DNA of 43,133 bases from Puniceicoccales bacterium (GCA_031258695.1 JAIRMM010000014.1:1-43133); one strand, 5' to 3'; numbered from the stretch's first letter, positions 8,073 through 40,505 are shown. Notes: a model not told the origin generated them from the letters alone. Program-made: numbers and translations.

Positions 8073-9248
8073 TTAGGTGATTGCTTTGATGCTATTGACC
8101 ATGCGTGACAATACATTTTTCCACTCGTCTTCCCCATATTCGGAACAGACGGAAAGTCTAAGCCGTGCGTGGCCGAGAGGAACCGAAGGATAGCGAATTG
8201 CTGCCAAATAAATCCCTCGTTGGTAAAGATTTTCGAAAATCTTCATCGTCGTCGTTTCATCTCCGATGATTATGGGTAAAATAGCTACGGCTTCCGGAGG
8301 GAATGCCATTCCACATTCTGAAAAAATACTTTTTGCCATCTCCGAAAGCTGTTTCAATCTGTGTACTCTCTCTGGCTGACTTTTCAAGATTTGTAAAGCC
8401 TTCGACGAAGCTGCCAATACCGAGCTTGGGAGCATCGTAGAACATAGGAAAGGGCGAGAACGCTGGCACAGGTATTGAATTAGACATTTGGTCCCGCAAA
8501 CAAAACCACCCAGGCTTCCGAGCGCTTTGCTGCACGTTCCAACTTGTATGATGCGTGGATTTGGTAAAATATTGAAATATTCCAGGGTCCCATGCCCCCT
8601 TTCCCCCAAAACGCCCAACCCATGAGCATCATCGATGATAATATGAGCGTCGAAACTTTCTGCCAGTTGCAACAGTTCTGGCAATGGGGCAACGGTTCCA
8701 TCCATGCTAAAAACCCCTTCCGTAATAATAAAGCGCGACTGCGCGTTTCGATGTTCATTCAATAGTTCCCGCAGCCGATCAACGTCGCGGTGGGGATAAA
8801 TCACTACCTTGGCATGGGAAAGTTTGCAACCGTCAATTATGCTAGCGTGGTTCTTTTCATCACTGAACATCACGTCTCCGCTGCAGCCAACGGTTGAAAT
8901 TAGACCGATGTTTGCCATATATCCGGTGTTGAACATCAATGCCGCTTCGGAATGTTTAAAATCTGCCAATTCCCTTTCCAGTTGATTCGCCAGCGGATGT
9001 GCCCCCGTTGTTAACCGCGCACCGCTGGACCCAGAACCATCATAACGCATACATTTTTGCGCGGATTCTATGACTTCGGGATGAAATCGTAGCCCCAAAT
9101 AGTCGTTAGTACACGCCACGAAAAGTCTATGGCCAGTCTCGGTCACGCCATGGGTTGCATCGAGAAATTTTAGCACTGGAATATTTCTCGTCAAATTTAT
9201 GCGATGGCATTTTTCAATTTCAGATTGCCAATATGTTTCCCCGGGCAT
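8073..9248 (-). CDS. bioF: 8-amino-7-oxononanoate synthase
   Basis: NDYLGL, GSSGARL, TGYMANIG, NHASIIDG, EGVFSMDG, DDAHGLG and GTCSKALG (PLP lysine); 2 bp downstream of bioW. Confidence 0.93.
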   Translation of the reverse strand: MPGETYWQSEIEKCHRINLTRNIPVLKFLDATHGVTETGHRLFVACTNDYLGLRFHPEVIESAQKCMRYDGSGSSGARLTTGAHPLANQLERELADFKHSEAALMFNTGYMANIGLISTVGCSGDVMFSDEKNHASIIDGCKLSHAKVVIYPHRDVDRLRELLNEHRNAQSRFIITEGVFSMDGTVAPLPELLQLAESFDAHIIIDDAHGLGVLGERGHGTLEYFNILPNPRIIQVGTCSKALGSLGGFVCGTKCLIQYLCQRSRPFLCSTMLPSSVLAASSKALQILKSQPERVHRLKQLSEMAKSIFSECGMAFPPEAVAILPIIIGDETTTMKIFENLYQRGIYLAAIRYPSVPLGHARLRLSVCSEYGEDEWKNVLSRMVNSIKAIT

Positions 9249-9250
9249 GT

Positions 9251-10036
9251 TTATTTCCGCAAAGTTTTCACCAATACCGGTTGATGTTCGAAAAAATTAA
9301 TCAAATCATCGAGATCTGCATTCGGTTTAACAAAAAACACACGCCCGCCGATATTGTCCTCTTTCAGTTTCATTGGAGAAAGTCTCCTATAAATTTCTTT
9401 GGAAGCAACATATCCAGTATCGTAATGCGGATCATCGGACCAACACAACTCTGCCATATAATCCTTTGTAAACGCTGCCTTCGAAGCTAATATCACGGCC
9501 TCACGGACCTTTTCACCACCTACACCGGATTCGACTAAAAAGCTTAAAAAAGCGGACTCATTTTCACAGTCCATGTGAGATAGTCGAACCCCTCGGACGC
9601 CGAAGTCATCGATGCGTTTACCGGTGCTAGCATCTAGGACCATTCCTCCCCTCATGCTTGCCGACAAATTCTTGATCAACGCAACACCTTTGCGCGCTGC
9701 GGTTTTAGAAACTCCAAACTCAACGAGCGAAGCAATGGCATTGCCATGGGCTTGCTCCACGGTTGCAAATTCCAGTGATTCCATTTTTAAAGCAGGTACT
9801 AGACGAATCGTTGCTCCGTCCATTTTGTCAATTTGAATATTGATGGTATCCGCCACGCCACGCGTGTGTGTTAAAACCCTCTGGAGAAGATTTTGAACAA
9901 CCGTAGCAATTTGATCGTCGGATACCAAACGTTCGCAACCGGATAAATGCTGTCCTTCTTTTCCATTACTGCCATTGGTTGCAGCTCGCATGCGTACGCT
10001 AAATAAGTAGTGTGGCAATGATTTATTCTCACCCAT
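9251..10036 (-). CDS. bioW: 6-carboxyhexanoate--CoA ligase (pimeloyl-CoA synthetase)
   Basis: SVRMRA, HLSGCERL, MRGGMVLD, RGVRLSHMD, EAVILASK, AELCWSDDPHYDTGYVAS and GGRVFFV. Confidence 0.93.
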   Translation of the reverse strand: MGENKSLPHYLFSVRMRAATNGSNGKEGQHLSGCERLVSDDQIATVVQNLLQRVLTHTRGVADTINIQIDKMDGATIRLVPALKMESLEFATVEQAHGNAIASLVEFGVSKTAARKGVALIKNLSASMRGGMVLDASTGKRIDDFGVRGVRLSHMDCENESAFLSFLVESGVGGEKVREAVILASKAAFTKDYMAELCWSDDPHYDTGYVASKEIYRRLSPMKLKEDNIGGRVFFVKPNADLDDLINFFEHQPVLVKTLRK

Positions 10037-11643: not shown

Positions 11644-12144
11644 ATGGACATTTACACTGAAGAAACCCACCGACCGACAGGGACCTATGGGGTACCTGGT
11701 CAATTTGTGGAACCGGCGGATGAACCGGTTTCGGAAATGGGAGGAGTAATTTGGACATCGAGAGCCGTGAGACAAATGCAGGGACTACGAGCAATTGCCC
11801 ATGAATATGAAGCTGAAATTGCCGAAAGACCATTGGGAGAAAGAGAAGTCACCCTTGTTGTTGACGGCCAACTGATTAACGGCCAATTTGTTGTTGACAA
11901 CGTAGAGGCGCGAAACCACCTAAGTGGTCTACAAGCAACGGCTGTGCAGGGATCCAAGTGGGGAAAAATGATCATCGGTGCTGCTGGACTGGCACTAGGA
12001 GTGATATTGCAAGTACAAGGTAGTAACTATGACGCAGCCGCCTATGGGGTTGCATTGGCCTTGATTGTATCGTCCCTGGAAAATATTTTTATAGACAAGA
12101 TCAAAAAGCCTGATCCTGCCTTGAGAGGAGAATATCGGGCATGA
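11644..12144 (+). CDS. Hypothetical membrane protein with a C-terminal hydrophobic hairpin (Inc-like effector candidate)
   Basis: Has its own promoter and SD. Two hydrophobic segments, MIIGAAGLALGVILQV and AAAYGVALALIVSSL, are joined by a 6-aa loop; no signal peptide. Confidence 0.75.
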   Translation: MDIYTEETHRPTGTYGVPGQFVEPADEPVSEMGGVIWTSRAVRQMQGLRAIAHEYEAEIAERPLGEREVTLVVDGQLINGQFVVDNVEARNHLSGLQATAVQGSKWGKMIIGAAGLALGVILQVQGSNYDAAAYGVALALIVSSLENIFIDKIKKPDPALRGEYRA

Positions 12145-12259: not shown

Positions 12260-12925
12260 TCAATTGAGGTATGGGTTATTTTTTTCCTTCAAAATGGTTG
12301 TAAATTTTCCATGGCCGGGGATAACCGTCGTATGTTGGGGCAATGTCAAAAGTTTTTCCTTTATTCCGGAAATCAGTAACGATTCATTGCCACCCGGCAA
12401 ATCAGATCTTCCAATGTTATTCTTGAATAATGTATCGCCCGTAAATACACATTCCAGTGCTTTGATATAAAATGCCAAATCCCCGGGAGAATGCCCCGGC
12501 ACCCATCGGCAAAAAATTTCCAGCCACCCGTTGACGTTGATCGTATGGTTATCTTCTATTTCAACATCGATTTTGCAGGGAATAAGGTTCATGTTCGATC
12601 CGCCAATCATTGCCACCAATTCCGGGTGTTCAATCAATAGTTTGTCCAGCCCATGGGCATAGGTTTGTGCTCCCAAATTTTTAAACACATGGCCGTCGCC
12701 CACGTGGTCCCAGTGGCCATGGGTAAATAAGACGGCGACCACTTTTGTGTCCGGCAGAAGCATGTTTTTACTCGCTTCGAATGCTCCAAAGGGGGCATCG
12801 ATCAGCACAGCCTCGTGGCGCTTGGCGTTCTCAATGAATCCGACATTGTTTCCGATGGGACCACACTTTGTAACAAAGATTTGTACTTCTTCACCCGATG
12901 CGACTAAAAATTTTGACCTATGCAT
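12260..12925 (-). CDS. MBL-fold metallo-hydrolase (glyoxalase II/YcbL-like)
   Basis: THGHWDH, PGHSPG, FTGDTLF, GRSDLPGG and PGHG. Confidence 0.92.
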   Translation of the reverse strand: MHRSKFLVASGEEVQIFVTKCGPIGNNVGFIENAKRHEAVLIDAPFGAFEASKNMLLPDTKVVAVLFTHGHWDHVGDGHVFKNLGAQTYAHGLDKLLIEHPELVAMIGGSNMNLIPCKIDVEIEDNHTINVNGWLEIFCRWVPGHSPGDLAFYIKALECVFTGDTLFKNNIGRSDLPGGNESLLISGIKEKLLTLPQHTTVIPGHGKFTTILKEKNNPYLN

Positions 12926-12926
12926 T

Positions 12927-13553
12927 TTAAAAAATTTCCAGGATCACCTTATCTTCCAATTCTCTAATACCGGTGATTTCAGCAACAATACCGGTGATTT
13001 CAGCAACATTATGAGAATTCCACCCATTAGGCAATCCTAAATCATTGCCATAATCTCCACCCTTCAGGTAAAAAATTTTGCCCTTTGGTTTCAAAAGTTT
13101 TTTCGAATATTTCAAAAAATCGGCCAAATTTGTCACCGCCCGGCCGACAATTTTATCGAATTTATCGAAAAAGTCTTCGGCCCGAATGTTTACCGTTTTC
13201 ACGTTCTGCAGGTTGAGTCTTCTTAGCATATCGTTCACCGCCATGATCTTTTTCCCGACAGAATCCATCAGTGTAAAACTAGTTTCACGGCAAACAATGG
13301 CCAACGGAATCCCGGGAAGACCACCTCCGGTCCCGATGTCCAAAACATCTTCGCCTTTGGTAAAATTTCCAACCGTGGAAATTGACAGGCTGGGAATGAT
13401 GTGATGGCCGATAACATTTTGAATATCTTTCCTTGAAACGAGGTTAATTTTTTCATTCCACTCACCCAGTAATTTGGAATATTCTACCAGCTGATGTAAT
13501 TGGCTTTCTTCCAGCCGGGGGAAAATTTTTGCGATTAAACTTTCATCTGCCAT
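12927..13553 (-). CDS. rsmG: 16S rRNA m7G527 methyltransferase
   Basis: WNEKINLVSRKD, VLDIGTGGGLPGIPLAI, DSVGKK, RAV and YLKG. Confidence 0.95.
   Translation of the reverse strand: MADESLIAKIFPRLEESQLHQLVEYSKLLGEWNEKINLVSRKDIQNVIGHHIIPSLSISTVGNFTKGEDVLDIGTGGGLPGIPLAIVCRETSFTLMDSVGKKIMAVNDMLRRLNLQNVKTVNIRAEDFFDKFDKIVGRAVTNLADFLKYSKKLLKPKGKIFYLKGGDYGNDLGLPNGWNSHNVAEITGIVAEITGIRELEDKVILEIF
12966..13007. repeat. Perfect 2 x 21-bp tandem duplication in the 3' end of rsmG
   Basis: AATACCGGTGATTTCAGCAAC at 12966-12986 and 12987-13007, encoding VAEITGI twice. Confidence 0.95.
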
Positions 13554-13596
13554 GAATTACAAGTAATTACTTCTTCCAGACCTTCCAGACCATTTC

Positions 13597-14406
13597 TCAG
13601 AAAAATTCATCGAGCGCTTTCCACCCTTGCATGGAGATTTCTTCGGGCCGTAGGTGTGCGGCAATTTTGCATTCCGACAGCCAACTTTGCAATTCAACGC
13701 ATCCGTCCTTGCCGATTCCTCCCATTTGTTTTCTTCTTTTTGTAAAAATCCACCTGATGGTCTGTTTCGTCCTTGGTTTAAAAAGGAACGGGTTTTGCTT
13801 TTTTACCATTGACACCATGACCGATGACACCATCGGCTCTGGATAGAATGAGTCTGCAGCCACCCTATGCATGGAAACCCTATCATAGGCCGATTGGATG
13901 AAAATTGAAATGGGACAGATTTCCGAAGGCCTGATGGAGGCAAAAAACCTCTGTGCCGTTTCGGCTTGGGTGATTAAATCTATGCTCTGTGGCAAATGGT
14001 AACATTCCAAAAGAGCGCTTATCCAGGTGGATGAAATCGAATAGGGTAGGTTGGAAACCACTTTAAAAGTGCCTATATTTTGTGGCAATCCGGCCATCGG
14101 AAAATCCACCGCATTGCCATGCATCAGCTGTAAATTACTGTAATTTACAAATTTGGATTTTAGAAAATTGAAAAGGCGCCTGTCCAATTCAATGGCGAAC
14201 AATTTGGCTCCGACCTTTAAAATTTTTTCTGACAGTGCTCCAAGCCCCGGACCAATCTCAACGACCACATCACCATCCCCCACATCCGAAATTGCCACAA
14301 CTTTATCGACCACATTGCCATCGACTAAAAAGTTTTGACCAAGTTTTTTGGAGGGAATTATTTTGAGGTTTTTTAAATCGAGCAGCGTTTGCTTTAATAG
14401 CGACAT
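13597..14406 (-). CDS. rsmA: 16S rRNA adenine dimethyltransferase (KsgA)
   Basis: PSKKLGQNFLVD, VVEIGPGLGALS, AIELD, VSNLPYSISS, RRKQM and RPEEIS. Start moved to ATG 14406 (MSLLKQ) to avoid overlap with sctU. Confidence 0.93.
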   Translation of the reverse strand: MSLLKQTLLDLKNLKIIPSKKLGQNFLVDGNVVDKVVAISDVGDGDVVVEIGPGLGALSEKILKVGAKLFAIELDRRLFNFLKSKFVNYSNLQLMHGNAVDFPMAGLPQNIGTFKVVSNLPYSISSTWISALLECYHLPQSIDLITQAETAQRFFASIRPSEICPISIFIQSAYDRVSMHRVAADSFYPEPMVSSVMVSMVKKQNPFLFKPRTKQTIRWIFTKRRKQMGGIGKDGCVELQSWLSECKIAAHLRPEEISMQGWKALDEFF

Positions 14407-14467
14407 TGGCTTGGTTGATGATTTATTATTTAATACCTTGGGAACCATAGTTTCCAACGTCGAAAAA

Positions 14468-15553
14468 TTACCAGGATTCACCTTCAAGCCCCATGCCCTG
14501 CTCATGCTGTTCCTTCATTTCATATACCCAACGCAGCACCTCAGCCACCGGCTCGATTAGTTCCGTGGGAATGAAAGTCATCACCTCTCCAACATCCATG
14601 AGAGAGTGTGCCAGTGGTACGTTGCGCATGATTGGAATATTATTCTCCCGGGCCACCCGTATCATTTCCTCTGCGATGGCTCCCTGCCCAGTCGCCAAAA
14701 TGATGGGCAAAGAAGATCCTTTGCTTTTCATGTTATAGTATACGGCTACGGCAATATGTTCGGGGTTTGTTATCAACACGCTGGATTGTTTTGTCCTACG
14801 TGGAGCATCCTGTTCGATCATTTCGCGGTGTAGCTGTTTTCGTTTTCCCTTAATTTGCGGATCTCCTTCCATTTCCTTGTACTCCCGTTTTACCTCATCC
14901 TTGGACATTTTCATTTTACTCATAAAATTTCGCTTTTGGAAGACAAAATCTATACACGCAACCACAACGTATGCAAAGATCACATTGTATGCAAATCGTT
15001 TCATTATTGGTCCCAGAATGTTGATCACTCCCGAGAGACCATAGAATGGTAACAGAAGCAAATCTCGAATTAGATTCTTTATGACCATGTAGATCAATAT
15101 GCCCAAAAATATTATTTTTAAGGCCGATTTCAAAAATTCGAAAAGGTTTTTTTTAGAAAAAATCTGTTTAATTTTTTCCGCAGGATTAAGTTTTTTTATA
15201 TCTGGTTTTACCGTTTCGAAGGTGAGCAGAAAACCAATTTGAGCACAATTTGCAACCACAGCCATAACCATGCAAATCCCGAGGGCAGGCAGTATGATGC
15301 TAATCATTTGTTTAAAAACCCCAGCAACAACGTTGGAATAGGCCATTTTAAAATCTTCCGACAGGTAGCCTATGGGAAACACGAGCATGTTTCCTATGGC
15401 TTTCACGTGACTGGACCATCCAAGACCCACGTATGCATACAGGCCTATTAGCAGGGATGTGGAAACCACATCCGTACTTTTAGACACCTGGCCTTTTTTT
15501 CTAGCATCCCGCAGCTTTTTCGGCGTGGGCATTTCTGTTTTTTCACCACTCAT
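14468..15553 (-). CDS. sctU: Type III secretion export switch protein, YscU/EscU family
   Basis: MSGEKTEMPTPKKLRDARKKGQV, MKMSKDEVKREYKEMEGDPQIK, autocleavage site NPEH and IPTELIEPVAEVLRW. Closer to YscU than to FlhB by recalled motifs. Confidence 0.92.
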   Translation of the reverse strand: MSGEKTEMPTPKKLRDARKKGQVSKSTDVVSTSLLIGLYAYVGLGWSSHVKAIGNMLVFPIGYLSEDFKMAYSNVVAGVFKQMISIILPALGICMVMAVVANCAQIGFLLTFETVKPDIKKLNPAEKIKQIFSKKNLFEFLKSALKIIFLGILIYMVIKNLIRDLLLLPFYGLSGVINILGPIMKRFAYNVIFAYVVVACIDFVFQKRNFMSKMKMSKDEVKREYKEMEGDPQIKGKRKQLHREMIEQDAPRRTKQSSVLITNPEHIAVAVYYNMKSKGSSLPIILATGQGAIAEEMIRVARENNIPIMRNVPLAHSLMDVGEVMTFIPTELIEPVAEVLRWVYEMKEQHEQGMGLEGESW

Positions 15554-16342
15554 CTATCTAACAAAAATTTTAACAAATTCCGCAAGTTTACTTCTGGACG
15601 TAAAATACAATTCGAAGAAGTGATTCAATAGGGACAAATACATAAACAAAAACATCATGGACAGCCAACTTTTTACCGGCATTGCTAGGAAGAAAACATT
15701 AAGTTGGGGAGCAAATCTGTTGACCATGCCAAGCCCAAATTCTGCCAGGAACAAAACTATCAATATGGGAGCTGCCAAGGAAAACATTATGGCCATCAAG
15801 TCCTTTACCAAATCCATAAAAAATACCGCAAACCCCACCTCAAACTTGGGGAAATATGAAAATACCGGCCACACTTGATAGGTCTTATATATGAGGTCCA
15901 GGAAAAATAAAAATCCACCGGAGGAAAAAAATGCCACCGACATCATTTGTATCAAGAAACTTCCCATGAGTGACGTTTGGGAACCCGCCATCGGGTCAAA
16001 TATCGTTGCCATCGATGCCCCCCGTTGAACATCGACCACAAAACCAACCCCTTCCGCCGTATAGAAAATAAAACTGGCGACAAACCCCAAAACAATCCCT
16101 ATGATAACCTCTTTTATCAGCAATCCGCCCATGCTTAGAACGGCAAATTCTCCCTGGGGAAGTGTTGGAAATACTAAACAAAACAATGGCAAAGACAGTG
16201 ACAATATGGTGACATTGCGTCCAGTTCCTACCACAAATTGGCGCGAAAAAAATGGAGCTACGGCCAACGACGCCCCCAATCGAGCCATTGCTATAATTAC
16301 CAATAGGCATGTACTTGATATTTCCTTTAGTGGCGTATTCAT
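15554..16342 (-). CDS. sctT: Type III secretion export apparatus subunit, YscT/EscT family
   Basis: Polytopic membrane protein with KEVIIG, VDVQRGASMA and LAEFGLGMVNRFAPQLNVFFLAMPVKS. Confidence 0.92.
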   Translation of the reverse strand: MNTPLKEISSTCLLVIIAMARLGASLAVAPFFSRQFVVGTGRNVTILSLSLPLFCLVFPTLPQGEFAVLSMGGLLIKEVIIGIVLGFVASFIFYTAEGVGFVVDVQRGASMATIFDPMAGSQTSLMGSFLIQMMSVAFFSSGGFLFFLDLIYKTYQVWPVFSYFPKFEVGFAVFFMDLVKDLMAIMFSLAAPILIVLFLAEFGLGMVNRFAPQLNVFFLAMPVKSWLSMMFLFMYLSLLNHFFELYFTSRSKLAEFVKIFVR

Positions 16343-16352
16343 AATCCACCTA

Positions 16353-16622
16353 TTACTTGGTTAACACCGGAAATTCATTGAATAGAAAGTTAGTGAATTC
16401 CAAAATTTCACCGCCTATCCAGTGACAGGTTAGGGCTAATACTACGATTACAAAGATCAATTTTACCGCAAATCCCAATGTCTGTTCCTGAACCTGAGTC
16501 AACGCTTGCAAGAGGCTGATGAACAGTCCTACTATCGTAGCTATCAAGATCGGAGGCATCGATAGAACCAACACCAAAATCATCGCCTTAGATGTTACAC
16601 TCAAAATAAATGACTCGTGCAT
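16353..16622 (-). CDS. sctS: Type III secretion export apparatus subunit, YscS/EscS family
   Basis: LSMPPILIATIVGLFISLLQALTQVQEQTLGFAVKL. Start at ATG 16622 gives 89 aa, the typical size. Confidence 0.92.
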   Translation of the reverse strand: MHESFILSVTSKAMILVLVLSMPPILIATIVGLFISLLQALTQVQEQTLGFAVKLIFVIVVLALTCHWIGGEILEFTNFLFNEFPVLTK

Positions 16623-16812
16623 AAGTTTAAAGTTATGCCATTTAAGCAAAAATTTTAGGATAAACAATCTTTTTTGAAATCTTTGATGTAAAACCCTCCC
16701 GTCTTCCGAATGGCTTCATTGCTAGGAAACAGATTCTTTGGGAAACCGATGGCATAGACTTTTTGGAAGATCGTTGGCTTTGCCTAGGGGTTGTGCCGTT
16801 GGCACACGCTGG

Positions 16813-17130
16813 TCACTTGGACGATTGGTTCTTAGCAATTTCGAGTTCTATAATTTTAAATTGGACGAACTTTCCCTTCGCTTTACCCGTTACCTCGCGA
16901 AAATATTCCATCGTAATTTCCTTGTCCACCCCATCGAATGTGTATTCGCAGTAAGTATCGATATCAAAATCAGACCGATCTTTTATAAAACCTTCAATTA
17001 TCTTTGTACGCTCAAGGTTTGTAAGTGCACCATAAAACTTACTTGCCACATTCTTTGAAGCAACGCACGTCGTTGTCCCCTTTGAAAAAATTTTTACCAC
17101 ATTGCTGTTATCCGTGCCACACATGACCAT
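16813..17130 (-). CDS. Hypothetical protein, 105 aa
   Basis: ATG-initiated ORF with globular-looking composition, co-oriented with sctSTU; no family recognised. Confidence 0.55.
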   Translation of the reverse strand: MVMCGTDNSNVVKIFSKGTTTCVASKNVASKFYGALTNLERTKIIEGFIKDRSDFDIDTYCEYTFDGVDKEITMEYFREVTGKAKGKFVQFKIIELEIAKNQSSK

Positions 17131-17417
17131 ATTCTTTTCCCGTTTGTGACTTTGAAAGTTAAAGCCGTCTTTCCATTAATTTCCTCTAAATTCAAAATCT
17201 TGTAAATGGTATATTTCAATCTGAAAACCCTTGCATTGTCAATAAAAAATTAGGATTTTTTGGTGGGTGCGAGAAAAATATCATCGGTAACGGCGATGAT
17301 AGTTGCCAAAAGGTCGGTTTGCCATGGGGTCTAAAAATTTAACGGAGGAATTATGCCATTTGCCAGGATTCGAATTGTCTTGAACTTTTAGCATATTCAC
17401 ATTTTTTCACCTAGGAA

Positions 17418-30637: not shown

Positions 30638-32656
30638 TTGCATATGCGGAAACTTTTTGTATCCTTTGCTTCCATAGGAATGGGATTGAAGAAGGTTAGG
30701 TTTTGTACGTTGATCTTGGCGGCTACTTTGTCGTTACCCGCCGAATCTTCCCTGAATAACATCGGAGAATTGCAGCGAAAAATATTCACCCAATCCACCC
30801 AATTTGATTCCGACGACCCAATGCCAGAAATAACGGCAGAAATAAAATTGACGGAGAACGAAACACCCGCAGTAAAATCAACGAAAAGAAAGACCTATGT
30901 CACGTTCTTCGACAACGAAAATGCCTTTCGCCAAACCACTCGAAAAAAATTGCTAGAAGAAGTTGAGACAAATTGGCAAATGTCTTCCCCAAAAGATCCG
31001 ATTTTAGACGACCATTCGGCCACCGGTTCATATGAAAATACGCTCTTCGAGAAGGCAAACAGAATTACCATTCCCCGGGTGAGATTCATAGACACCCCTC
31101 TGTCACGGGTAATTGAATCCTTGGCCAACCTGGCGGAGGTCAATGATTCCGCCGTCGATGATAATGGAAAAGGAATGAACATTGTACTGCTTGGCATGGA
31201 GAGCGTGGAAAATGAACCGGTGGTGAATTTGAACTTAAAAAATATTTCTTTCTACCGCCTGGTTGAGTTGATTACCCAGTCGATTTCCTATCAATTTGAT
31301 ATCACCGATGATGCGATCATTATTTACAGGCGTGACCTAGCCGAAGGCATATTAGATACGCAATTTTTTCCCATATCCCGCGCAACTCTGGTCCGACTAA
31401 CGGGCATTCAAGGCATAAATCATCACATATATAATGCTCCAGGTTCCCCGGAAAATGTTGCCGACGAAGAGCATGCCATAAAAGAATTTTTTCAACGGGC
31501 AGGGATAAATTTCAAGGATGTTACGGGTAGCAATTTAGCATTCGATGGTTCCCAAATAATAGTTACCAATACGGGAAGAAATTTAATAAAAATTAGCAAC
31601 ATACTTCGAAAATACTCCGAAGTTAAACAGGTTGAAATCGAGACGAAATTTCTGGAAGTTCAGCAGGGTGTGCTCGATGAATTGGGCTTTCGATGGCAAT
31701 TTGGAAGTAAAAAAAATGACAATAAAATATTTTTTCAGACCGGGGAAACCGTTGATAATTCTCGGCGTGATAACCTGCGCACGCTCGTAGAAACATTTGC
31801 ATCTACAAATTTTTCAAGAGGGGATGGCAAAATAGTTGGATCCAATCCAGAAGCCAGTCCCATTACCCTGCCGAACCAGCCGCCTGGACTTCCAGGGCAA
31901 ATAAACCTGGGAGCATCGGCCACACCCCTGGCGAATTTTACCGGTGTGTTAAATAGCATACAGTGCAACGCCATGATCCAGGCATTGGAACAGCATGCCG
32001 GGTCGGATCTTATGAGCGCTCCAAAACTGACGGTGCTTTCCGGAAAGACGGCAAAAATTGTCATAGCCATGGAACTACGCTACCCGCAAAGCTATGGAGA
32101 TACGCATTCCGAAGTCGGCACGGGGTATTCCGGGCTGGGCGCGTCGAGTTCCGCTGGAGTGACCATAACGGCTGGCACACCGCAAAATTTTACCACGCGC
32201 AACGTCGGTGTGGAAATGAGCGTAACTCCCATCGTCGAAATGGACGGTAGCATCAGTTTGCAACTTGAACCAAAAGTCACCGAATTCGAAGGGTTCGTGG
32301 AATATGGCGGAGTAAATGTTGCCGTAACGTCGGGCAATACGGTCACCATTCCATCCGGATTTTATCAGCCGATATTTTCAACGCGGGAAATCCACACGGA
32401 GGTCAATGTTTTCGACGGAGCAACCGTTGTCATGGGCGGCCTAACCCGCGAAGAAATAAAAGAGGTAAACGACAAAGTCCCCATATTGGGAGATATTCCC
32501 CTGCTCGGCAGATTGTTTAGGTCGAAAAGTGAAACCATCCAGAAACGAAACCTGCTGATTTTCGTCACTGCCCACACCATTTCTCCTCTGGGAAACAAAA
32601 AATTACTACCCAATGTGGAACAATCCACGACAGTTCCAAGCCAAAGCCCAAAGTGA
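30638..32656 (+). CDS. Secretin (GspD/PilQ family; Verrucomicrobia Amuc_1098-like)
   Basis: QVEIETKFLEV, DLMSAPKLTVLSG, RNVGVEMSVTP, PKVTEFEGFVEYG and KVPILGDIPLLGRLFRS. A signal-peptide-like segment follows ATG 30680, an alternative start. Confidence 0.9.
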   Translation: MHMRKLFVSFASIGMGLKKVRFCTLILAATLSLPAESSLNNIGELQRKIFTQSTQFDSDDPMPEITAEIKLTENETPAVKSTKRKTYVTFFDNENAFRQTTRKKLLEEVETNWQMSSPKDPILDDHSATGSYENTLFEKANRITIPRVRFIDTPLSRVIESLANLAEVNDSAVDDNGKGMNIVLLGMESVENEPVVNLNLKNISFYRLVELITQSISYQFDITDDAIIIYRRDLAEGILDTQFFPISRATLVRLTGIQGINHHIYNAPGSPENVADEEHAIKEFFQRAGINFKDVTGSNLAFDGSQIIVTNTGRNLIKISNILRKYSEVKQVEIETKFLEVQQGVLDELGFRWQFGSKKNDNKIFFQTGETVDNSRRDNLRTLVETFASTNFSRGDGKIVGSNPEASPITLPNQPPGLPGQINLGASATPLANFTGVLNSIQCNAMIQALEQHAGSDLMSAPKLTVLSGKTAKIVIAMELRYPQSYGDTHSEVGTGYSGLGASSSAGVTITAGTPQNFTTRNVGVEMSVTPIVEMDGSISLQLEPKVTEFEGFVEYGGVNVAVTSGNTVTIPSGFYQPIFSTREIHTEVNVFDGATVVMGGLTREEIKEVNDKVPILGDIPLLGRLFRSKSETIQKRNLLIFVTAHTISPLGNKKLLPNVEQSTTVPSQSPK

Positions 32657-32828
32657 TATTTTGCCGAACGGTGCCGTCGGAAGAGTCCACCATCCCATTG
32701 TTTTTTACCTAAAAAGCGATGGCGGAGAAAACTCTCCAAACGGTTCGACATTGGTACCTTGTAAGAGTTTTGCCGCCACAAAACATTATGCTTGACTCGG
32801 GGTGGTAATTATGGAATTTGGTGTACCC

Positions 32829-34361
32829 ATGCTATCCACGGTTCAGTCCTGTGCATTGCGAGGTATTGACGCCGTTAATATCGCCGTTGAGGTCAATTCC
32901 TGTGAGCGGGGAGATTTAAAATTTATAATCGTTGGGCTGCCCGATGCGGCCATAAAGGAATCCTGCGACAGAATATTTTCTGCACTTGTAAACAGCGGCT
33001 ATGCCATTCCCTATACCAGAACAACCGTAAACTTGGCACCCTCCTACATCAGAAAGGAAGGATCTTTCTACGACCTACCCATCGCACTCGGCGTAATCCA
33101 GAGCACGGGTCAGTCCTACCTCCACAATTTAAGTGAGTTCATAGTCGCTGGAGAATTGGGGCTGTCTGGGAAAATTCGAGGAATCAAGGGCGGTCTCACC
33201 TTCGCCATAAAAGCAAAGAAGGAGAAGAAAAAATTGCTACTGCCCGTGGAGGCTGCCCAGGAAGCATCATTTGTCGACGGCGTGGAAATTTTCGCGGTGA
33301 ATAATCTGAACGAAGCGGTTAAATTTTTGACCGGCCAAATAAAATTAGTTCCCCTGGAACACAGGAACTTTCTTAGCCTACTAAAAAATGAAGACAGCCT
33401 AGATTTTTCCGAAGTGAAAGGCCAGGAAAGCTTACGCAGGGCCGTAGAAATAGCCGTTGCCGGAGCCCATAATATTCTAATGATCGGACCTCCCGGCGCT
33501 GGCAAATCGATGATTGCCAAACGTATCCCGAGCATAATGTCCATGCCCACCTTCGATGAATTTTTGGAAACTATGAGCATTTATTCGGCGGCAGGATTAC
33601 TCATGGCAGAAAAGAATGCCCATTTCGAACGGCCATTCCGATCTCCCCACCACACGATTAGCAACGCAGGTTTACTGGGAGGAGGCAGCATCCCATGCCC
33701 GGGAGAGATTTCACTGGCCCACAACGGAGTATTGTTTTTGGATGAGCTCTCGGAATTTCACCGCGCAACCCTAGAGTCTTTGCGCCAACCCCTGGAAGAT
33801 GGCAGCGTGACGATTTCCAGGAGTTCTGGAAAGGTTAAGTTTCCCTGCCGAACGATGATTGTTGGGGCAATGAATCCATGCCCATGCGGATATTTGGGGG
33901 ACAAAACGCGCAGGTGCAAATGCAGCCATTTGGACATTCAACGCTATAGGTCCCGCATCAGTGGCCCGATGATGGATAGGTTCGACATACAGATAAACGT
34001 TCTTGCCGTTCCGATTGAGGATATTCAATCAAAAAAGTTTTCTGAATCATCCATGGACATACGGGTTCGCGTAGAAAAAGCATCAAAAATTCAAACGGAA
34101 CGCTTCAAATCTTCGCAAAATGGACGCAATGCTCACATGTCCCATGGCGAAGTGGTGAAATTTTGCAGAGTTGATGGAGAATCATCCGACCTGTTGGCAA
34201 CGGCCATGAAACAACTGGGCCTTTCCGCCAGGGCATACGATAAAATTTTAAAAGTTAGTCGCACGATTGCGGATTTGGAATGCGAAGAAAAAATTTTACC
34301 GCATCACATCTTAGAATCCATCCAGTATCGCTCATTGGAAATGGTCATAGATGGGAGATAG
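32829..34361 (+). CDS. comM: YifB/ComM Mg-chelatase-like AAA+ ATPase
   Basis: [49 protein letters not shown] and AMNPCPCG. Start at ATG 32829 (MLSTVQS). Confidence 0.95.
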
Positions 34362-35452: not shown

Positions 35453-36622
35453 ATGATTATTAAACCTAAAACACGTGGTTTTATATCCCTAACGGCTCAT
35501 CCCAAGGGGTGTGAAGAAAATGTAAGGCAACAAATTGCATTTGCAGAAAAACACAATATTCCCAATGGCCCAAAAAATGTTTTGGTTATTGGGGCTTCTA
35601 CGGGCTATGGTTTGGCAAGCAGAATTACGCTAGCCTTCGGCGGAGGAGCAAATACCATAGGAATATCTTTTGAGCGTCCATCGGAAAAAGACAAACCTGC
35701 CTCCGCCGGCTGGTATAACTCGGTCGCTTTCAAAAAATTTGCGGAACAGCGTGGTCTATTGGCAGAAAATATAAACGGCGATGCCTTTTCATCCGAAGTG
35801 AAGGAGCAGGTAATAGATTTGATAAGGCAAAAATTTGGACAGATAGACTGTGTGGTGTACAGCCTAGCTTCCCCCAAGAGAACGGATCCCTTTACCGGTG
35901 AGGTTTTTAAATCGGTCCTTAAGCCCATAGGAAAACCTTTCACGGGGAAAACAATCAACGTTGACAGGGAAGAAGTCTACGAAGTAACCATCGAACCGGC
36001 TACGGCCGAGGAAGTACGGGCAACGGAAAAAGTAATGGGAGGCGAAGATTGGGAATTGTGGATACAGGCCCTGCACAATGAAAAGTTGTTGGCAAATGGT
36101 GTCAAAACCGTCGCCTATTCATACATCGGCCCCGAAATCACCTGGCCAATCTATGCAAATGGGACCATAGGAGCCGCCAAGGATGATTTGATGCGGGCAA
36201 TGGAAGCGATAAAGTTTTTGTTGGCTGATATTGGAGGACAAGCGATCGTTTCCGTAAATAAAGCTGTAGTAACCCAGGCTAGTGCTGCCATACCGGTGGT
36301 TCCACTGTACATTTCAATCCTCTTCAAAGTTATGAAGGAAAAGGAGATCCACGAAGGATGCATAGGACAAATGGTTAGATTGTTTAGCGAAAGATTATAT
36401 GGACCCCATGCCGGCAAATCCTTGGATGAACAAGGCCGTATCCGATTGGATGACTTCGAACTAAACCGGGATGTTCAAGATGCCATCGCCAAAATTTGGC
36501 CGAAAATTTCTACGGAAAACCTGAAAGAGTTTTCAGACATAGATGGATATAAGCAAGAATTTCTAAAACTTTTTGGTTTTGGACTGGCTTCCATCGACTA
36601 CGATGATGATGTGGAAATTTAG
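35453..36622 (+). CDS. fabV: Enoyl-ACP reductase FabV / trans-2-enoyl-CoA reductase
   Basis: AHPKGC, GASTGYGLASRI, NGDAFS, YSLASP, VMGGEDW, YSYIGP and IYANGTIGAAK. Confidence 0.96.
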   Translation: MIIKPKTRGFISLTAHPKGCEENVRQQIAFAEKHNIPNGPKNVLVIGASTGYGLASRITLAFGGGANTIGISFERPSEKDKPASAGWYNSVAFKKFAEQRGLLAENINGDAFSSEVKEQVIDLIRQKFGQIDCVVYSLASPKRTDPFTGEVFKSVLKPIGKPFTGKTINVDREEVYEVTIEPATAEEVRATEKVMGGEDWELWIQALHNEKLLANGVKTVAYSYIGPEITWPIYANGTIGAAKDDLMRAMEAIKFLLADIGGQAIVSVNKAVVTQASAAIPVVPLYISILFKVMKEKEIHEGCIGQMVRLFSERLYGPHAGKSLDEQGRIRLDDFELNRDVQDAIAKIWPKISTENLKEFSDIDGYKQEFLKLFGFGLASIDYDDDVEI

Positions 36623-36792
36623 TTAAATCTTTCCGTACTTTCCTTTTTTTCTATCTTTTTTTCGCTCCTTTTTTTTGAGATTCGCGTTTAAATATAATAA
36701 GGAAGATATAGATAGTTATTGGAAAGGTTGTAAAATTGCTGAAAAAAACTAAGCAAAGTGCTAAGCAAGATACCAATCAACGATGAATGCAG

Positions 36793-36830
36793 AAAAAGTA
36801 GATACCCTTATTCATGGGTGTCTATTTTTT
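36793..36830. terminator. Likely intrinsic terminator hairpin between convergent fabV and res
   Basis: AAAAAGTAGATACCC-TTATTCAT-GGGTGTCTATTTTTT: a 15-bp stem with two G-U pairs on the + transcript and a T tail; the A tract on the left could allow bidirectional use. Confidence 0.65.
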
Positions 36831-37378
36831 ATTTTGTTATTTATGCCAATGTTTGGCAACTTTTGAGAAATATGCCGATAATCTCATTTGCCATAATTTA
36901 AACCATGCCCATTGACAGATGTAAAATAACACCTATGGCCGAAAAGTTGAGATGTCCACCGGCTTGGCCAGGCGGGAATAGCTAACATCCGAATGGCAAC
37001 AAATTTTAACATTTTCCAAACCAACCCCCTGTCTCCGTAGGGATACGGGTAGACTTTTACCGTTACTTATTGAAAAAATATGAGCCGGTGAGGACATACC
37101 AACTCCAGTTCTCAGTCCAACGGTCCAACATCAACCATTGATTTTGGGACCAACGATGCCTGTGAGTAGAGGTTTGAGCATCCCGATATAACATGGCTGT
37201 TCTCCTTTGAGACAGTATTCATTTGGATGCCTCCGTCCAGGAAAATGGCTATGGAATATGACCAATTTCATCCATTTCTATCGATGGCGGAGATGATGAG
37301 GCGCGGAGTTACGTCTTTGTCTGCCGGAGACCTAAACTCAAAACCGAAGAATTAAAACCGAAGGCACTAAACTTTGTC

Positions 37379-40300
37379 TCACCGCATGACTTTATCGAGC
37401 AGGGCTTCATAGCTTTCAACGATGTCGTATGTTACGGTATCGCAGGATTTTACGGTGCCACAGGTTATTGCTGCAAAATGTTTTTTGGCACATTCGATTT
37501 TGGATTTTTCAACTACCCGCAGCTGCGGAAGTGCCATTGTTCCTTTTGTTTCTGCGACGAAATAGATGTGCTTGATTCCCTCCCTCTTGAAGTCAAAGAC
37601 GATTGCCCAATCGGGAGTATATTTCCCCATCGGCGTGGATATGAAAAATCCAGAGGGTAGTTTGGCGTAGATCGAAACATTTTCACTACTGTCCAAATTT
37701 TCCACGAATTTGCGTTCATTTTCCGAGTCCGTGTGTACGTGGGAGCAGATATTTTTTTTGGTCGCTACGGTATCTCGTTTGTTTCCCCATGGCGTTGGGT
37801 TAGTAAAAATTTCCACATTGTAGGTGGAATCCAGTTTGTTGTATTTGATGTGCTCAACCACGGCGGTCGCTTTTTGCTCGTTGATGAGGTTAGACGCGCG
37901 GAGAATAAATTCCTCGGGGTTAGTTTTAAACATTTCAAATGTATTTTGTTTAAGTTGCCTGAGAATTTCTGCGACTGTGCGGCGTGTCAGTCCGGTATTT
38001 TCCACAAATTTTCCAACAATATCATACTTGATGTCGCACATGGGCTTGGTAGCCAGCCGCACTGGGAACTGCTTTTGTTTGCTGAAAGCACGATTACTTT
38101 CCAAACATTGTTTGGATTTTATTTCACCCATTTCACCCGCTATTATGATTACCTTTGGCTTTGAAATGCAAAGACGACCCTCCGAATTCAGCGTTTCTAC
38201 GGATTTCGCAATCAAATCATCGGTGTCAAAATCGACACTGTAGGAAGATTTGATGTTTATGCGATTCCAGAGGTCCTGAAACTCTTTCTTACTAAGTTTT
38301 TCTTTATCGAGTTTCAGCTCCACATTTCTTTCTCTGGCGTTTTCCGGCTTCATGGCATCGGAGTCGTAGATGGTGCCTATTATCCCAATGATGTCATCCG
38401 CCAATACGTTCGCTTCTACGGTAAATTTACCATTTTGCACATCACTGTAATATTTCTCCGTTAATTTTCCCTTCTCTACGTAACGGTTACGAATCATGCT
38501 TTCGTAGATTACGGCCGCACAATCATAGGAAATTTTTCCCCCTTTCCCATCGCCATTGCGTACGGATTTACCTTCAAATAAGTCCTCCGAAATTTCCTTT
38601 GGGCGATGGGCTATGTCACCGGCGATAGCTCCCTGCAGCCCGACGACGAAGCTTTCATAGGATTCGCTGGCTATCACGGTTAAAATGTTTACATCGTGCA
38701 CGCCATCGCCAAAGGAAGTGCCATCCATGCGCTCGCCCTTCTGATTTACACAGAGGCGGAGTCCACGGCCGATTTCCTGCCGCTTGGCAATGTCGGAATT
38801 GTTCCGTTTCAGTGTGCAAATTTGGAACACATTCGGATTATCCCACCCCTCGCGGAGGGCGGAATGGGAAAAAATAAATCGCACTGGCTCGGCCTTGTCG
38901 AGCAACCGTTCCTTATTTTTCATGATGAGGTCGTAGGCACTGCAGTCATCGGATAGCATTTCTTTTCTTCCTATTTTACCGTTGATGAATTTGTTGCTCT
39001 TTTTGTCGATGGAAAAATATCCACTGTGGGCGGTTGCTGCCGTTGTGGATTTGAGAAATCTTGCATATTCTTCATCTCCGAAATTCGGTTGATAGTTTTC
39101 CACGGCGTTTGCGTATTCTTCTTCGAAGATTTTCGCGTAAATTCCATTGGTCTCGATAGTCTCTTCGCGATTTTCGCTACCTATGTCCAATTTTTCATCT
39201 TCCGAAGTCTTCGAAGGAATCCCATCCTTATCGTTGGACAGGCGGTATTTTTTTACTTCGTCGATGAAAAACAGGGACAACACTTTTATGTCCTTGTAAA
39301 ATAGCTGCCGTTCCCGGTCAATGTGAGATATTATGGTTTCTCGGATCTGTATGCGGCGTAAAAGTTCCTCGTTCGTGCATCCATTTATTTCTCCGACAAA
39401 AATTTTGACTCCGTTCGCAAACTCAATGAAATTCATCTCCCCATTGATGGCGGTCACAAACCACCCATCTTTGTACTCATCGAGAAATTTCGACAATTGA
39501 TAGAGATTGTCTCCTTCTTTCACCACGCGCATTTTTTTGTAAATTTTATCCCTACCTTTGGCGTCAAATTCGATGGTGGCGGTGGGATTTTTTACGTTCG
39601 ATAGGTTTATTCCTGCCAGATAAACATATCCGTTCGTTGCAGTATTTCCGCTGATGGAAATTCCTTTGACTGCAATTTTTTTCACCAATTTCCTATTATA
39701 GGCATCCATCGCATCAAGGCGATACACCATGTTGTAGGAATAACGGTGTGTGGCGGAGTAGCGAAGCGTAAAGAGTGGATTAAAATTTTTCAAAGCTTCC
39801 TTCGTTGCACTCCCCTCCACCGACTGCGGCTCATCGATTATTAAAATTGGCCGTGTCTCAGCAATGACATCAATAGGTCTACGGCCTTTGAAGGAATCGA
39901 GATTCATCGAAACACGGAGGGTATCATTTTTGCGATTGAATGCCTGTGCATTGATGATCATTGCGTTGATGTTGCTATCCGTGGTGAATTGTTCCACATC
40001 CTTCGGCGAGGCAGAATTGTAAATGAAAAAGCGAATTTTTTTGCCATATCCTTCGAAAAAATGGTGCTCCGTCATTTCAAATGCTTTGCGAACACCTTCC
40101 CGAATGGCGACGTTCGGCACGACGATGATGAATTTTGCCCATCCATAGCGTCTGTGTAGCTCGTACATCGTTTTAATGTACACGTACGTTTTGCCCGTTC
40201 CCGTCTCCATCTCCACGGTCAAATTCAAATTTGGCCACTCACCTTCCAGCTCAGCGATTGGTTGCAGGTTCTGTCTGATTTGAACTCTGCGAATATTGGC

Positions 40301-40492
40301 CAAAATTTCCTCCCCAGGGATTTCTACGGGATGATTTGGGAGGACGTCGTCGATGGAATTGTTTTTTTCATCCTGTCGGATAAAGAAAATACTGTGTTCA
40401 AGCGGCTTAATAAGGGGTTGCCCTTCGAACGCGTCGCATACGGCGTTGGTGGCATCCCATTGGAATTGCTGGTGTTTGAATTGCAGTTTCAT
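37379..40492 (-). CDS. res: Type III restriction-modification endonuclease subunit Res
   Basis: METGTGKT, IIDEPQ, RYSATH, SALREGWDNPNVFQIC, QEIGRGLR and C-terminal nuclease YTPDW...VAETKG; intact, 1037 aa. Confidence 0.95.
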   Translation of the reverse strand: MKLQFKHQQFQWDATNAVCDAFEGQPLIKPLEHSIFFIRQDEKNNSIDDVLPNHPVEIPGEEILANIRRVQIRQNLQPIAELEGEWPNLNLTVEMETGTGKTYVYIKTMYELHRRYGWAKFIIVVPNVAIREGVRKAFEMTEHHFFEGYGKKIRFFIYNSASPKDVEQFTTDSNINAMIINAQAFNRKNDTLRVSMNLDSFKGRRPIDVIAETRPILIIDEPQSVEGSATKEALKNFNPLFTLRYSATHRYSYNMVYRLDAMDAYNRKLVKKIAVKGISISGNTATNGYVYLAGINLSNVKNPTATIEFDAKGRDKIYKKMRVVKEGDNLYQLSKFLDEYKDGWFVTAINGEMNFIEFANGVKIFVGEINGCTNEELLRRIQIRETIISHIDRERQLFYKDIKVLSLFFIDEVKKYRLSNDKDGIPSKTSEDEKLDIGSENREETIETNGIYAKIFEEEYANAVENYQPNFGDEEYARFLKSTTAATAHSGYFSIDKKSNKFINGKIGRKEMLSDDCSAYDLIMKNKERLLDKAEPVRFIFSHSALREGWDNPNVFQICTLKRNNSDIAKRQEIGRGLRLCVNQKGERMDGTSFGDGVHDVNILTVIASESYESFVVGLQGAIAGDIAHRPKEISEDLFEGKSVRNGDGKGGKISYDCAAVIYESMIRNRYVEKGKLTEKYYSDVQNGKFTVEANVLADDIIGIIGTIYDSDAMKPENARERNVELKLDKEKLSKKEFQDLWNRINIKSSYSVDFDTDDLIAKSVETLNSEGRLCISKPKVIIIAGEMGEIKSKQCLESNRAFSKQKQFPVRLATKPMCDIKYDIVGKFVENTGLTRRTVAEILRQLKQNTFEMFKTNPEEFILRASNLINEQKATAVVEHIKYNKLDSTYNVEIFTNPTPWGNKRDTVATKKNICSHVHTDSENERKFVENLDSSENVSIYAKLPSGFFISTPMGKYTPDWAIVFDFKREGIKHIYFVAETKGTMALPQLRVVEKSKIECAKKHFAAITCGTVKSCDTVTYDIVESYEALLDKVMR

Positions 40493-40505
40493 CGCTGGCC
40501 TTTCG

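Follow-up and report, generated by a model that had tools for sequence, protein, structure and literature searches.

The object of this analysis is a cassette of three genes, sctS-sctT-sctU, coding for export-gate proteins of a non-flagellar type III secretion system (T3SS). It is found in a 43,133-nucleotide stretch of DNA from a Puniceicoccales bacterium (GCA_031258695.1, JAIRMM010000014.1:1-43133), which we will call the window and which is the entire contig C16 (43 kb) of its genome, G000, an assembly of ca. 0.76 Mb (761 kb) in 43 contigs, 76% complete and with a contig GC of 0.40-0.45. The three genes are followed on the same strand, with short gaps, by rsmA, rsmG and a gene for a metallo-beta-lactamase (MBL)-fold hydrolase (Table 1), and a gene at 11644-12144 is convergent to the last of them. 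All six products were above the cut-offs of their Pfam families (in this order, Bac_export_3, Bac_export_1, Bac_export_2, RrnaAD, GidB and Lactamase_B). This is the arrangement described in the initial annotation, with intact sctS, sctT and sctU at its head, and both the layout of the open reading frames (ORFs) and the Pfam and NCBIfam matches bear it out. The ORF of sctS reaches from 16353 to 16667, and translation likely begins with the ATG at 16622, which gives the protein the same length as in its relatives.

The motifs of the cassette had been matched to YscU/YscT rather than to FlhB/FliR, and its non-flagellar identity stands. All three export-gate proteins scored above the curated non-flagellar cut-offs of NCBIfam and below the flagellar ones: SctS reached 102.4 bits with TIGR01403 (cut-off 76.5) against 80.6 with FliQ (cut-off 88.9), SctT 203.8 bits with TIGR01401 (cut-off 163.05) against 135.6 with FliR (cut-off 168.6), and SctU 403.5 bits with TIGR01404 (cut-off 358) against 305.8 with FlhB (cut-off 349.25). 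The trees agree, flagellar and non-flagellar sequences being split with supports of 99/97 in the SctU tree (34 rows) and 100/100 in the concatenated S+T+U tree (22 rows), and the proteins of the window fall with the non-flagellar side and not with FliQ/FliR/FlhB. The outgroups were the FlhB proteins of Ralstonia, Klebsiella and Listeria and the flagellar sets of three Opitutales; the SctU of Mesorhizobium, cut after ca. 256 aligned residues, was omitted from the SctU tree and kept as a partial row in the concatenated one. Among structures, the best PDB matches were the SpaR, SpaS and FlhB chains of export-gate complexes and the C-domains of YscU and EscU, with SpaR chains as the best match of SctT. 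Along the same lines, flagellin was above its cut-off in none of the 23 genomes of the family to which G000 belongs (one gave a weak match), and no flagellum-specific gene was met there with the flagellin profile, rod, hook and motor families not having been searched. There was one FliP, FHIPEP or FlhB-family copy per genome.

Table 1. Features of the window, with positions counted from its first letter
Feature	Position	Strand	Description
sctS	16353..16622	-	89 aa; export-gate helical assembly subunit; 10 nt before sctT
sctT	15554..16342	-	262 aa; export-gate subunit; 0 nt before sctU
sctU	14468..15553	-	361 aa; export-gate switch protein
NPEH	14756..14767	-	SctU residues 263-266; position of the canonical NPTH autocleavage site of SctU/FlhB
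rsmA/ksgA	13597..14505	-	16S rRNA dimethyltransferase; TIGR00755 183.7 bits (cut-off 171)
rsmG/gidB	12927..13553	-	16S rRNA m7G527 methyltransferase; TIGR00138 134.3 bits (cut-off 99.5)
MBL-fold hydrolase	12260..12925	-	PF00753 71.1 bits (cut-off 22.7); end of the same-strand run
ORF105	16813..17130	-	conserved 105-aa ORF, 190 nt upstream of sctS
secretin	30638..32656	+	best match Amuc_1098 type IV pilus family, 323 bits (cut-off 750)

The rest of the injectisome: distribution and kind

The closest SctU proteins (from 95% down to ca. 50% identity) and 23 related loci from species-representative genomes all belonged to Puniceicoccales or to Opitutales/Opitutia metagenome-assembled genomes, in keeping with the Opitutia-like lineage that had been considered probable. 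The GTDB family of the window (f1) comprises 23 genomes, G000 and those of 22 other species, with sizes of 0.7-1.0 Mb. The initial annotation had pointed to the rest of the genome for sctR, sctV, sctN, sctJ, sctC and sctQ; two of these, sctV (contig C36) and sctC (C14), were found in G000, and sctR, sctN, sctJ and sctQ were not. The sctV product scored 913.9 bits (cut-off 692). That of sctC, which lies behind a CesT-like chaperone gene and proS, reached 344.9 bits (cut-off 238) as against 101.6 on GspD, and it has an SPI-1-type N0 domain. A further contig (C37) carries sctD between mutS/nusB and clpX. Adjoining sctV we found sctX (66.5 bits, cut-off 30) and, beside it, a SctY-like ORF of 127 aa, the counterpart of which in G014, another member of the family, has a TPR match in Pfam. 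SycN-like, TyeA-domain and YopN-like ORFs are also present at this locus, the SycN and TyeA matches being weak and the YopN-like ORF having no family match, and next to the yopN-like gene there is a SseC-like ORF of 287 aa (L078:12995-13858). Of the ten core genes (sctC, D, J, N, Q, R, S, T, U and V), G000 has therefore C, D, S, T, U and V in its 76%-complete assembly, and all ten are present both in the congener G001 (95% SctU identity) and in G014.

That no sctR precedes sctS had already been noted and was confirmed. The 795 nt upstream of sctS contain only a 105-aa ORF, followed by a divergent cysJ-like gene, and neither sctR nor a remnant of it; there was no FliP-family match anywhere in the G000 assembly, and none by tblastn with the SctR of G001. 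The possibility of an sctR remnant upstream of sctS or elsewhere in G000 was accordingly rejected.

The relatives show how the system is laid out when more of the genome is available. SctU was found in 20 of the 22 relatives within the family, and over its 23 genomes SctR was detected in 18, SctN above the cut-off in 20, SctJ in 22 and SctD in 21. The needle protein SctF was above the cut-off in 10 of the 23 genomes and in 21 at E<=0.01. As for the window, weak needle matches in G005 and G001 near the syntenic contig pointed to positions 36600-37400, where only ORFs of at most 54 aa were found besides the ends of the flanking genes, and these candidates were discarded. In this family and in two others with genomes of ca. 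0.9 Mb (f4 and f19) the common split is sctQR | sctSTU | sctJKLNOP | chaperone-sctC | sctD | yopN-tyeA-sycN-sctX-sctY-sctV. It is well illustrated by G014 (6 contigs, 94% complete), in which the pieces are sctQ-sctR behind a 262-aa ORF (C1:45-47 kb), sctJ-K-L-N-O-P (C1:68.5-73.7 kb), chaperone-sctC (C2:33-36 kb), sctS-T-U (C2:127-130 kb), sctD (C3), and a series made up of the yopN-like gene, tyeA, the sycN-like gene, sctX, the sctY-like gene and sctV (C4). These pieces are flanked by def, tsaB, smpB, thrS, proS, rho, cmk and glgB, and over all genomes the housekeeping flanks include def, tsaB, smpB, thrS, proS, tig, mutS, nusB, clpX, rplM/rpsI and malQ. Genes of glycogen or starch metabolism are found directly beside the sctV piece, malQ in G000 (L078) and glgB in G014 (L064). 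In G014 an 842-aa ORF without family follows sctC (L063:11298-13826); it is not found at that place in G000.

Along the closed genome of G025 (878 kb), from one of the ca. 0.9 Mb families, one meets sctV (101 kb), sctJ (264 kb), sctSTU (527-529 kb), sctQ-R (571-572 kb) and sctC (773 kb), and G040 is partitioned in the same way. In the larger genome G031 (1.8 Mb) sctJ-K-L-N-O-(P)-Q-R-(S)-T-U form one run, with a separate flagellar set, and in G023 (4.4 Mb) Q-R-S-T-U are together. The three reduced families form one clade (100/100 in the SctU tree, 100/99 in the S+T+U tree), and the break-up, the separation of sctR from sctS included, would most likely date to their common ancestor, to judge from gene trees and gene order without a species tree. 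The view of an old, domesticated and scattered injectisome, put forward from the window alone, thus finds support in the core genes on other contigs, the at least five to six loci with housekeeping flanks, the shared break between Q-R and S-T-U, the purifying selection described below and the fact that flagellar genes were not found. What did not hold is that such scatter is a trait of chlamydiae alone. Scattered injectisomes are known in Chlamydiales and also in Hamiltonella and on a Yersinia plasmid (PMC3459982), and the plasmid pDEVAL01 of Nitratidesulfovibrio vulgaris RCH1 (L083) has annotated sctV-sctS-sctT-sctU with no sctR before sctS, so that the R|S cut is not unique to the Opitutales lineage. 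In one family member, G010, a second SctJ-like stretch (C5:6505-6990) is interrupted by three in-frame stops while the copy on a different contig is intact, so that here a duplicated T3SS gene has decayed.

The kind of injectisome was approached through similarity, gene content and phylogeny. Among 665 plasmid records the best matches of SctU were from Photobacterium (41.9% identity), YscU (41.4%), AscU (38.2%) and Nitratidesulfovibrio (37.6%), and its identities to the Rhc, Hrp2, Mxi-Spa and FlhB rows, among the matches listed, were 26-35%. The SctV of G000 gave 825.7 bits on the full-length Yersinia-type LcrD (7alw), 484.7 on SsaV and 406 on FlhA. Its C-domain gave 399.3 bits on YscVc (7qij), 315.1 on the CdsVc of C. 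pneumoniae (6wa6) and ca. 163-175 on InvA, EscV, MxiA and SsaV (the identities of entries 7qij and 6wa6 are taken from PMC9163089 and PMC7584215). SctX and SctY are described as restricted to Ysc-family systems (PMC9163089); as Ysc-family markers in G000, SctX passes its cut-off and the SctY model, with 65.3 bits, falls just under the cut-off of 70. The order of the yopN-like gene, the tyeA-domain gene, the sycN-like gene, sctX, the sctY-like gene and sctV on C36 is collinear with pYVe8081, and the YscK and YscO families of Pfam were matched in G014.

The trees contained Ysc, Rhc, Hrp2, Mxi-Spa/SPI-1-like and flagellar references, and no sequences from Chlamydiales, Myxococcales, SPI-2/Esc, Hrp1 or Verrucomicrobium spinosum. 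In the SctU tree the window falls in a clade of the Planctomycetes-Verrucomicrobia-Chlamydiae (PVC) superphylum (92/92), together with Opitutales, Methylacidiphilales, ‘Verrucomicrobia LW23’ and a Planctomycetaceae sequence, and this clade, the Ysc clade and Nitratidesulfovibrio form an unresolved fork (84/86). A long Mxi-Spa branch inside the Ysc clade of this tree is probably an artefact. In the S+T+U tree the proteobacterial references, Ysc included, group together (87/89) apart from the Opitutales. Judged by these comparisons, the T3SS is Ysc-like in content and similarity and a clade of its own in the S-T-U phylogeny, its deep placement being left unsettled by the references sampled; an undescribed T3SS subfamily, as suggested in the initial annotation, is on this basis a possibility only.

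The autocleavage site of SctU is another peculiarity of the lineage. In the 34-row alignment nine sequences have NPEH (eight of the family and G025), one NPKH (G001) and 23 NPTH, with one degenerate rhizobial site, and of the 120 closest SctU clusters 54 have NPTH, 49 NPEH and five NPAH, five are single variants and seven were unmatched by the pattern. The third residue of the motif varies in this verrucomicrobial clade (E, K, Q, D, A, G, S or T), with N, P and H kept. A two-residue insertion follows the motif in the family and in G025. No literature naming NPEH was found, in a search that is not a full answer. These NP-x-H variants represent a natural experiment on the tolerance of the SctU autocleavage motif.

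Surroundings of the cassette

The 105-aa ORF upstream of sctS (ORF105) matched no family of Pfam or NCBIfam, and the ESM Atlas gave nothing usable for it (predicted local distance difference test, pLDDT, of the model 0.40). Over 105 aa it shares 85% identity with its positional counterpart in G001, with a ratio of non-synonymous to synonymous substitution rates (dN/dS) of 0.12, and was detected by tblastn in six related loci besides the copy of the window, being conserved within the genus. The same-strand run may start with this ORF, which could code for a small T3SS-associated protein or be an unrelated gene.

At the other end of the cassette, 38 nt are shared by the end of sctU and the longest rsmA ORF. 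The first ca. 48 residues of the latter are conserved in the closest congeners only, and for this reason the true start may be Met34 (14406), which would put the two genes 61 nt apart; the gaps further down are 43 nt (rsmA-rsmG) and 1 nt (rsmG-MBL). A simple scan predicted no terminator between the genes of the run, with site counts not clearly above those of shuffled sequence, and read-through transcription of the whole run is plausible from this layout. There was no RNA run among the sequencing runs listed as holding positions 12260-17400. The gene rsmA adjoins sctU in 9 of the 11 genomes of the same genus with enough flank (two more have contig ends there) and in none of the 11 from other genera or families with enough flank. 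The adjacency is thus limited to one genus and reflects a recent rearrangement at that level, and the link of sctU to rRNA methyltransferases is probably without functional meaning beyond possible read-through.

The rest of the contig is made up of housekeeping and defence genes (among them thrS, ppdK, bioW/bioF, a class I aldolase, xerD, dnaX, mraZ/rsmH, recD2, OppA-like, comM/yifB-like, fabV-like and type III restriction). The statement that the 43 kb hold no other injectisome or flagellar gene proved right, with one remark: the window does contain a secretin gene, which is of the verrucomicrobial type IV pilus kind (Table 1). As a candidate for SctC it was rejected, with only 67.9 bits on TIGR02516 (cut-off 238). 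It is followed by a YifB/ComM-like Mg-chelatase-type ATPase (both within 30638-34361, + strand), and it is one of three secretins in G000 (on C13, C14, the SctC, and C16). On the minus strand, at 37379-42361, a type III restriction endonuclease of 1037 aa lies beside two adjacent ORFs, each matching a portion of the N6_N4 DNA methylase profile, a pattern suggestive of a mod gene that is split or frameshifted. A Dam-like D12 methyltransferase is found at the start of the contig (149-1045, - strand). Defence genes have thus been retained despite a genome of less than 1 Mb, and bioW (6-carboxyhexanoate-CoA ligase) and a bioF-like aminotransferase (8073-10036, - strand) are also kept in this strongly reduced genome.

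Lifestyle and competing explanations

Comparison with the four congeners in which synonymous divergence is unsaturated gave dN/dS values of 0.06-0.10 for sctS, 0.06-0.10 for sctT and 0.04-0.07 for sctU, and the three genes are therefore maintained by selection. A TLC-family transporter of the ATP/ADP type is present in 22 of the 23 genomes of the family (584 bits in G000, C27:32149-33636); it hints at energy parasitism and points to life inside a cell. In lower-termite guts, Opitutales with small genomes (LL51, UBA9783) have been described as putative protist endosymbionts with nucleotide transporters (NTTs) (PMC11257099), and a verrucomicrobial ‘Nucleococcus cluster’ of protist endosymbionts is known (PMC8204192). 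Only one sequencing run contained half or more of the words sampled from the window; it is labelled termite gut metagenome, is flagged as the possible source and is therefore not independent evidence. UBA9783, an Opitutales family with genomes of less than 1 Mb, has also been reported from the guts of farm animals, with PPDK, an F-type ATPase, peptide uptake, type IV pili and no flagella (PMC12306168). These traits are likewise seen in the window or in G000, without the family of the window being equated here with any named one. In the main texts of PMC12306168, PMC11257099 and PMC8204192, as distinct from their supplements, the terms ‘type III’, ‘T3SS’ and ‘secretion system’ do not appear, and we found no literature pairing Puniceicoccales with type III secretion. 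The combination of a conserved injectisome under selection with a nucleotide transporter speaks for a bacterium that manipulates a eukaryotic cell directly.

The explanation we favour, with a probability of about 0.8, is that the export-gate cassette of the window is functional and belongs to a scattered injectisome, in an Opitutales symbiont that is genome-reduced and likely intracellular. By analogy with solved homologues, SctS, SctT and SctU would be three of the five export-gate proteins of a non-flagellar T3SS, SctS and SctT forming with SctR the helical R5S4T1 core in the inner membrane, and SctU wrapping this core, with its cytoplasmic domain as the substrate-specificity switch. The cassette would appear isolated because an ancestral Ysc-type J-K-L-N-O-P-Q-R-S-T-U cluster, along with the C/D and yopN-to-V operons, was broken into at least five to six pieces amid housekeeping genes; these pieces would have been kept by selection since the break-up in the common ancestor of the three ca. 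0.9 Mb families, and a later rearrangement in the genus would have put rsmA-rsmG-MBL directly behind sctU. The organism would most likely be an obligate associate of a eukaryotic cell, given the tiny genome, the TLC nucleotide transporter and the apparent lack of a flagellum, and would use the injectisome on this host.

Several observations weigh against this explanation. In G000, hidden Markov model (HMM) searches and tblastn with the proteins of G001 detected none of sctR, Q, J, K, L, N, O and P, and the HMM search for a needle gene found none either; the translocon is hinted at by one weak SseC-like match (23.8 bits, cut-off 30.2); SctU does not have the canonical NPTH motif and reads NPEH; and the co-transcription of sctU and rsmA rests on spacing and on the absence of a predicted terminator. 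The missing genes might mean that the injectisome has already been lost in this species, in which case sctR, Q, J and N would really be gone, and S, T and U would be either not yet degraded or without a role in secretion; the SctJ-like stretch with three stops in G010 shows that T3SS copies do decay in the family. We nevertheless consider such a relic quite unlikely. Also missing from G000 are the ordinary genes around the QR and JKLNOP loci of G001, over 15-19 kb, as expected at 76% completeness, to which we therefore attribute the absence of both pieces; an incomplete assembly is its most likely cause and fits better than a deletion, which is not to say that it is proven. Besides, the dN/dS of 0.04-0.10 against four congeners does not speak of genes in decay, sctV, sctC, sctD and sctX are intact elsewhere in G000, and a congener with 95% SctU identity has the full set. 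Another reading accepts a functional export machine and assigns it a task other than a eukaryotic host, releasing proteins to the medium or onto bacteria in a free-living gut scavenger, a way of life suggested as possible for the similar family UBA9783 (PMC12306168); the weakness of the translocon evidence and the fact that no host has been identified would suit it. It is nonetheless unlikely, since a SctC with an N0 domain, SctF in the relatives, a gatekeeper and SctX/Y make up the layout of a contact-dependent injectisome, the transporter in 22 of 23 genomes points to intracellular life, and the termite-gut Opitutales with small genomes are putative protist endosymbionts (PMC11257099).

Two more trivial origins of the cassette were considered. 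In an assembly as fragmented as this one (43 contigs), a mis-binned or chimeric contig, or a fragment of a recently acquired island, might bring export genes among housekeeping ones. We find this very improbable: the GC of the window contig (0.439) is within the range of the others with no step in composition at the cassette, the order mraZ...dnaX-xerD-cysJ-like-ORF105-sctSTU-rsmA-rsmG recurs in G001, sctSTU is present in 20 of the 22 other genomes of the family, and the SctU tree tracks the grouping by genus and family. It is extremely improbable that the genes are the fliQ-fliR-flhB of a reduced flagellar system. This export gate is homologous, with the same Pfam families, and its models do score strongly, if below threshold; against it stand the three sub-threshold scores themselves, the separation in both trees (99/97 and 100/100), the lack of flagellin over the cut-off in 23 genomes and the company of SctC, SctD, SctX and SctV.

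A wider reading can be built on the favoured one, and we offer it tentatively, at somewhat under even odds. The reduced Opitutales might be a second lineage of the PVC superphylum with a chlamydia-like way of life, combining a Ysc-type (SctX/SctY) injectisome in at least six pieces, the R|S break among them, with a nucleotide transporter, glycogen genes and a relaxed NP-x-H (mostly NPEH) site, and possibly corresponding to the ‘Nucleococcus cluster’. The scatter would then reflect the loss of island regulation and a constitutive use of the needle within the host cell, and the T3SS would be a separate, unnamed branch beside Ysc.

Comparison with known systems

The nearest known systems are those of the Ysc family (Ysc of Yersinia, Asc of Aeromonas and Vsc of Vibrionaceae), which the present one resembles in the similarity of SctU and SctV, in SctX/SctY and in the order of the sctV operon. 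However, the Ysc systems are compact, plasmid-borne and regulated islands, whereas here there are at least five to six chromosomal pieces amid housekeeping genes, and the Opitutales sequences do not nest in the gammaproteobacterial Ysc clade. In addition, the sctV of G000 is followed by malQ and not by an lcrG-lcrV-lcrH-yopBD operon (this applies to the sctV locus, translocators not having been searched genome-wide), and the autocleavage site is NPEH instead of NPTH.

With the chlamydial system there is likeness in the spread of the genes over several chromosomal loci, the small genome, the nucleotide transporters and the membership of the PVC superphylum. The breakpoints are different: Chlamydia keeps sctR-S-T together and sctU beside sctV, whereas in the Opitutales lineage R and S, and U and V, are apart. 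The C-domain of SctV, the sole sequence proxy for chlamydial membership that we have, scores lower on CdsVc (315.1) than on YscVc (399.3). The T3SS, NTTs and glycogen genes have been named as chlamydial hallmarks (PMC9816063). On the other hand, Chlamydia is described as lacking both SctX and SctY (PMC9163089), which are present here (the latter as a SctY-like ORF), and as using a secretin like that of type II secretion systems (PMC3459982), whereas the one found here passes the SctC model and has the SPI-1-type N0.

Within the phylum, the comparison is with the non-flagellar T3SS of V. spinosum and other Verrucomicrobia. According to PMC3459982 such systems were found only in Chlamydiae, Proteobacteria and Verrucomicrobia, V. 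spinosum having the only verrucomicrobial one and the family field of its entry in the supplementary table being empty. Closer still, the Opitutales with larger genomes (G031 and G023) have compact clusters, and G031 a flagellar set as well, in contrast to the reduced clade, in which the genes are scattered and flagellar genes were not found. Scattered injectisomes as such were already known from Chlamydiales and Hamiltonella (PMC3459982), and the features proper to the present one are the R|S break and the NP-x-H site. The reduced Opitutales thus provide an independent case, beside Chlamydiae and Hamiltonella, for asking why T3SS islands fragment in obligate host-associated bacteria.

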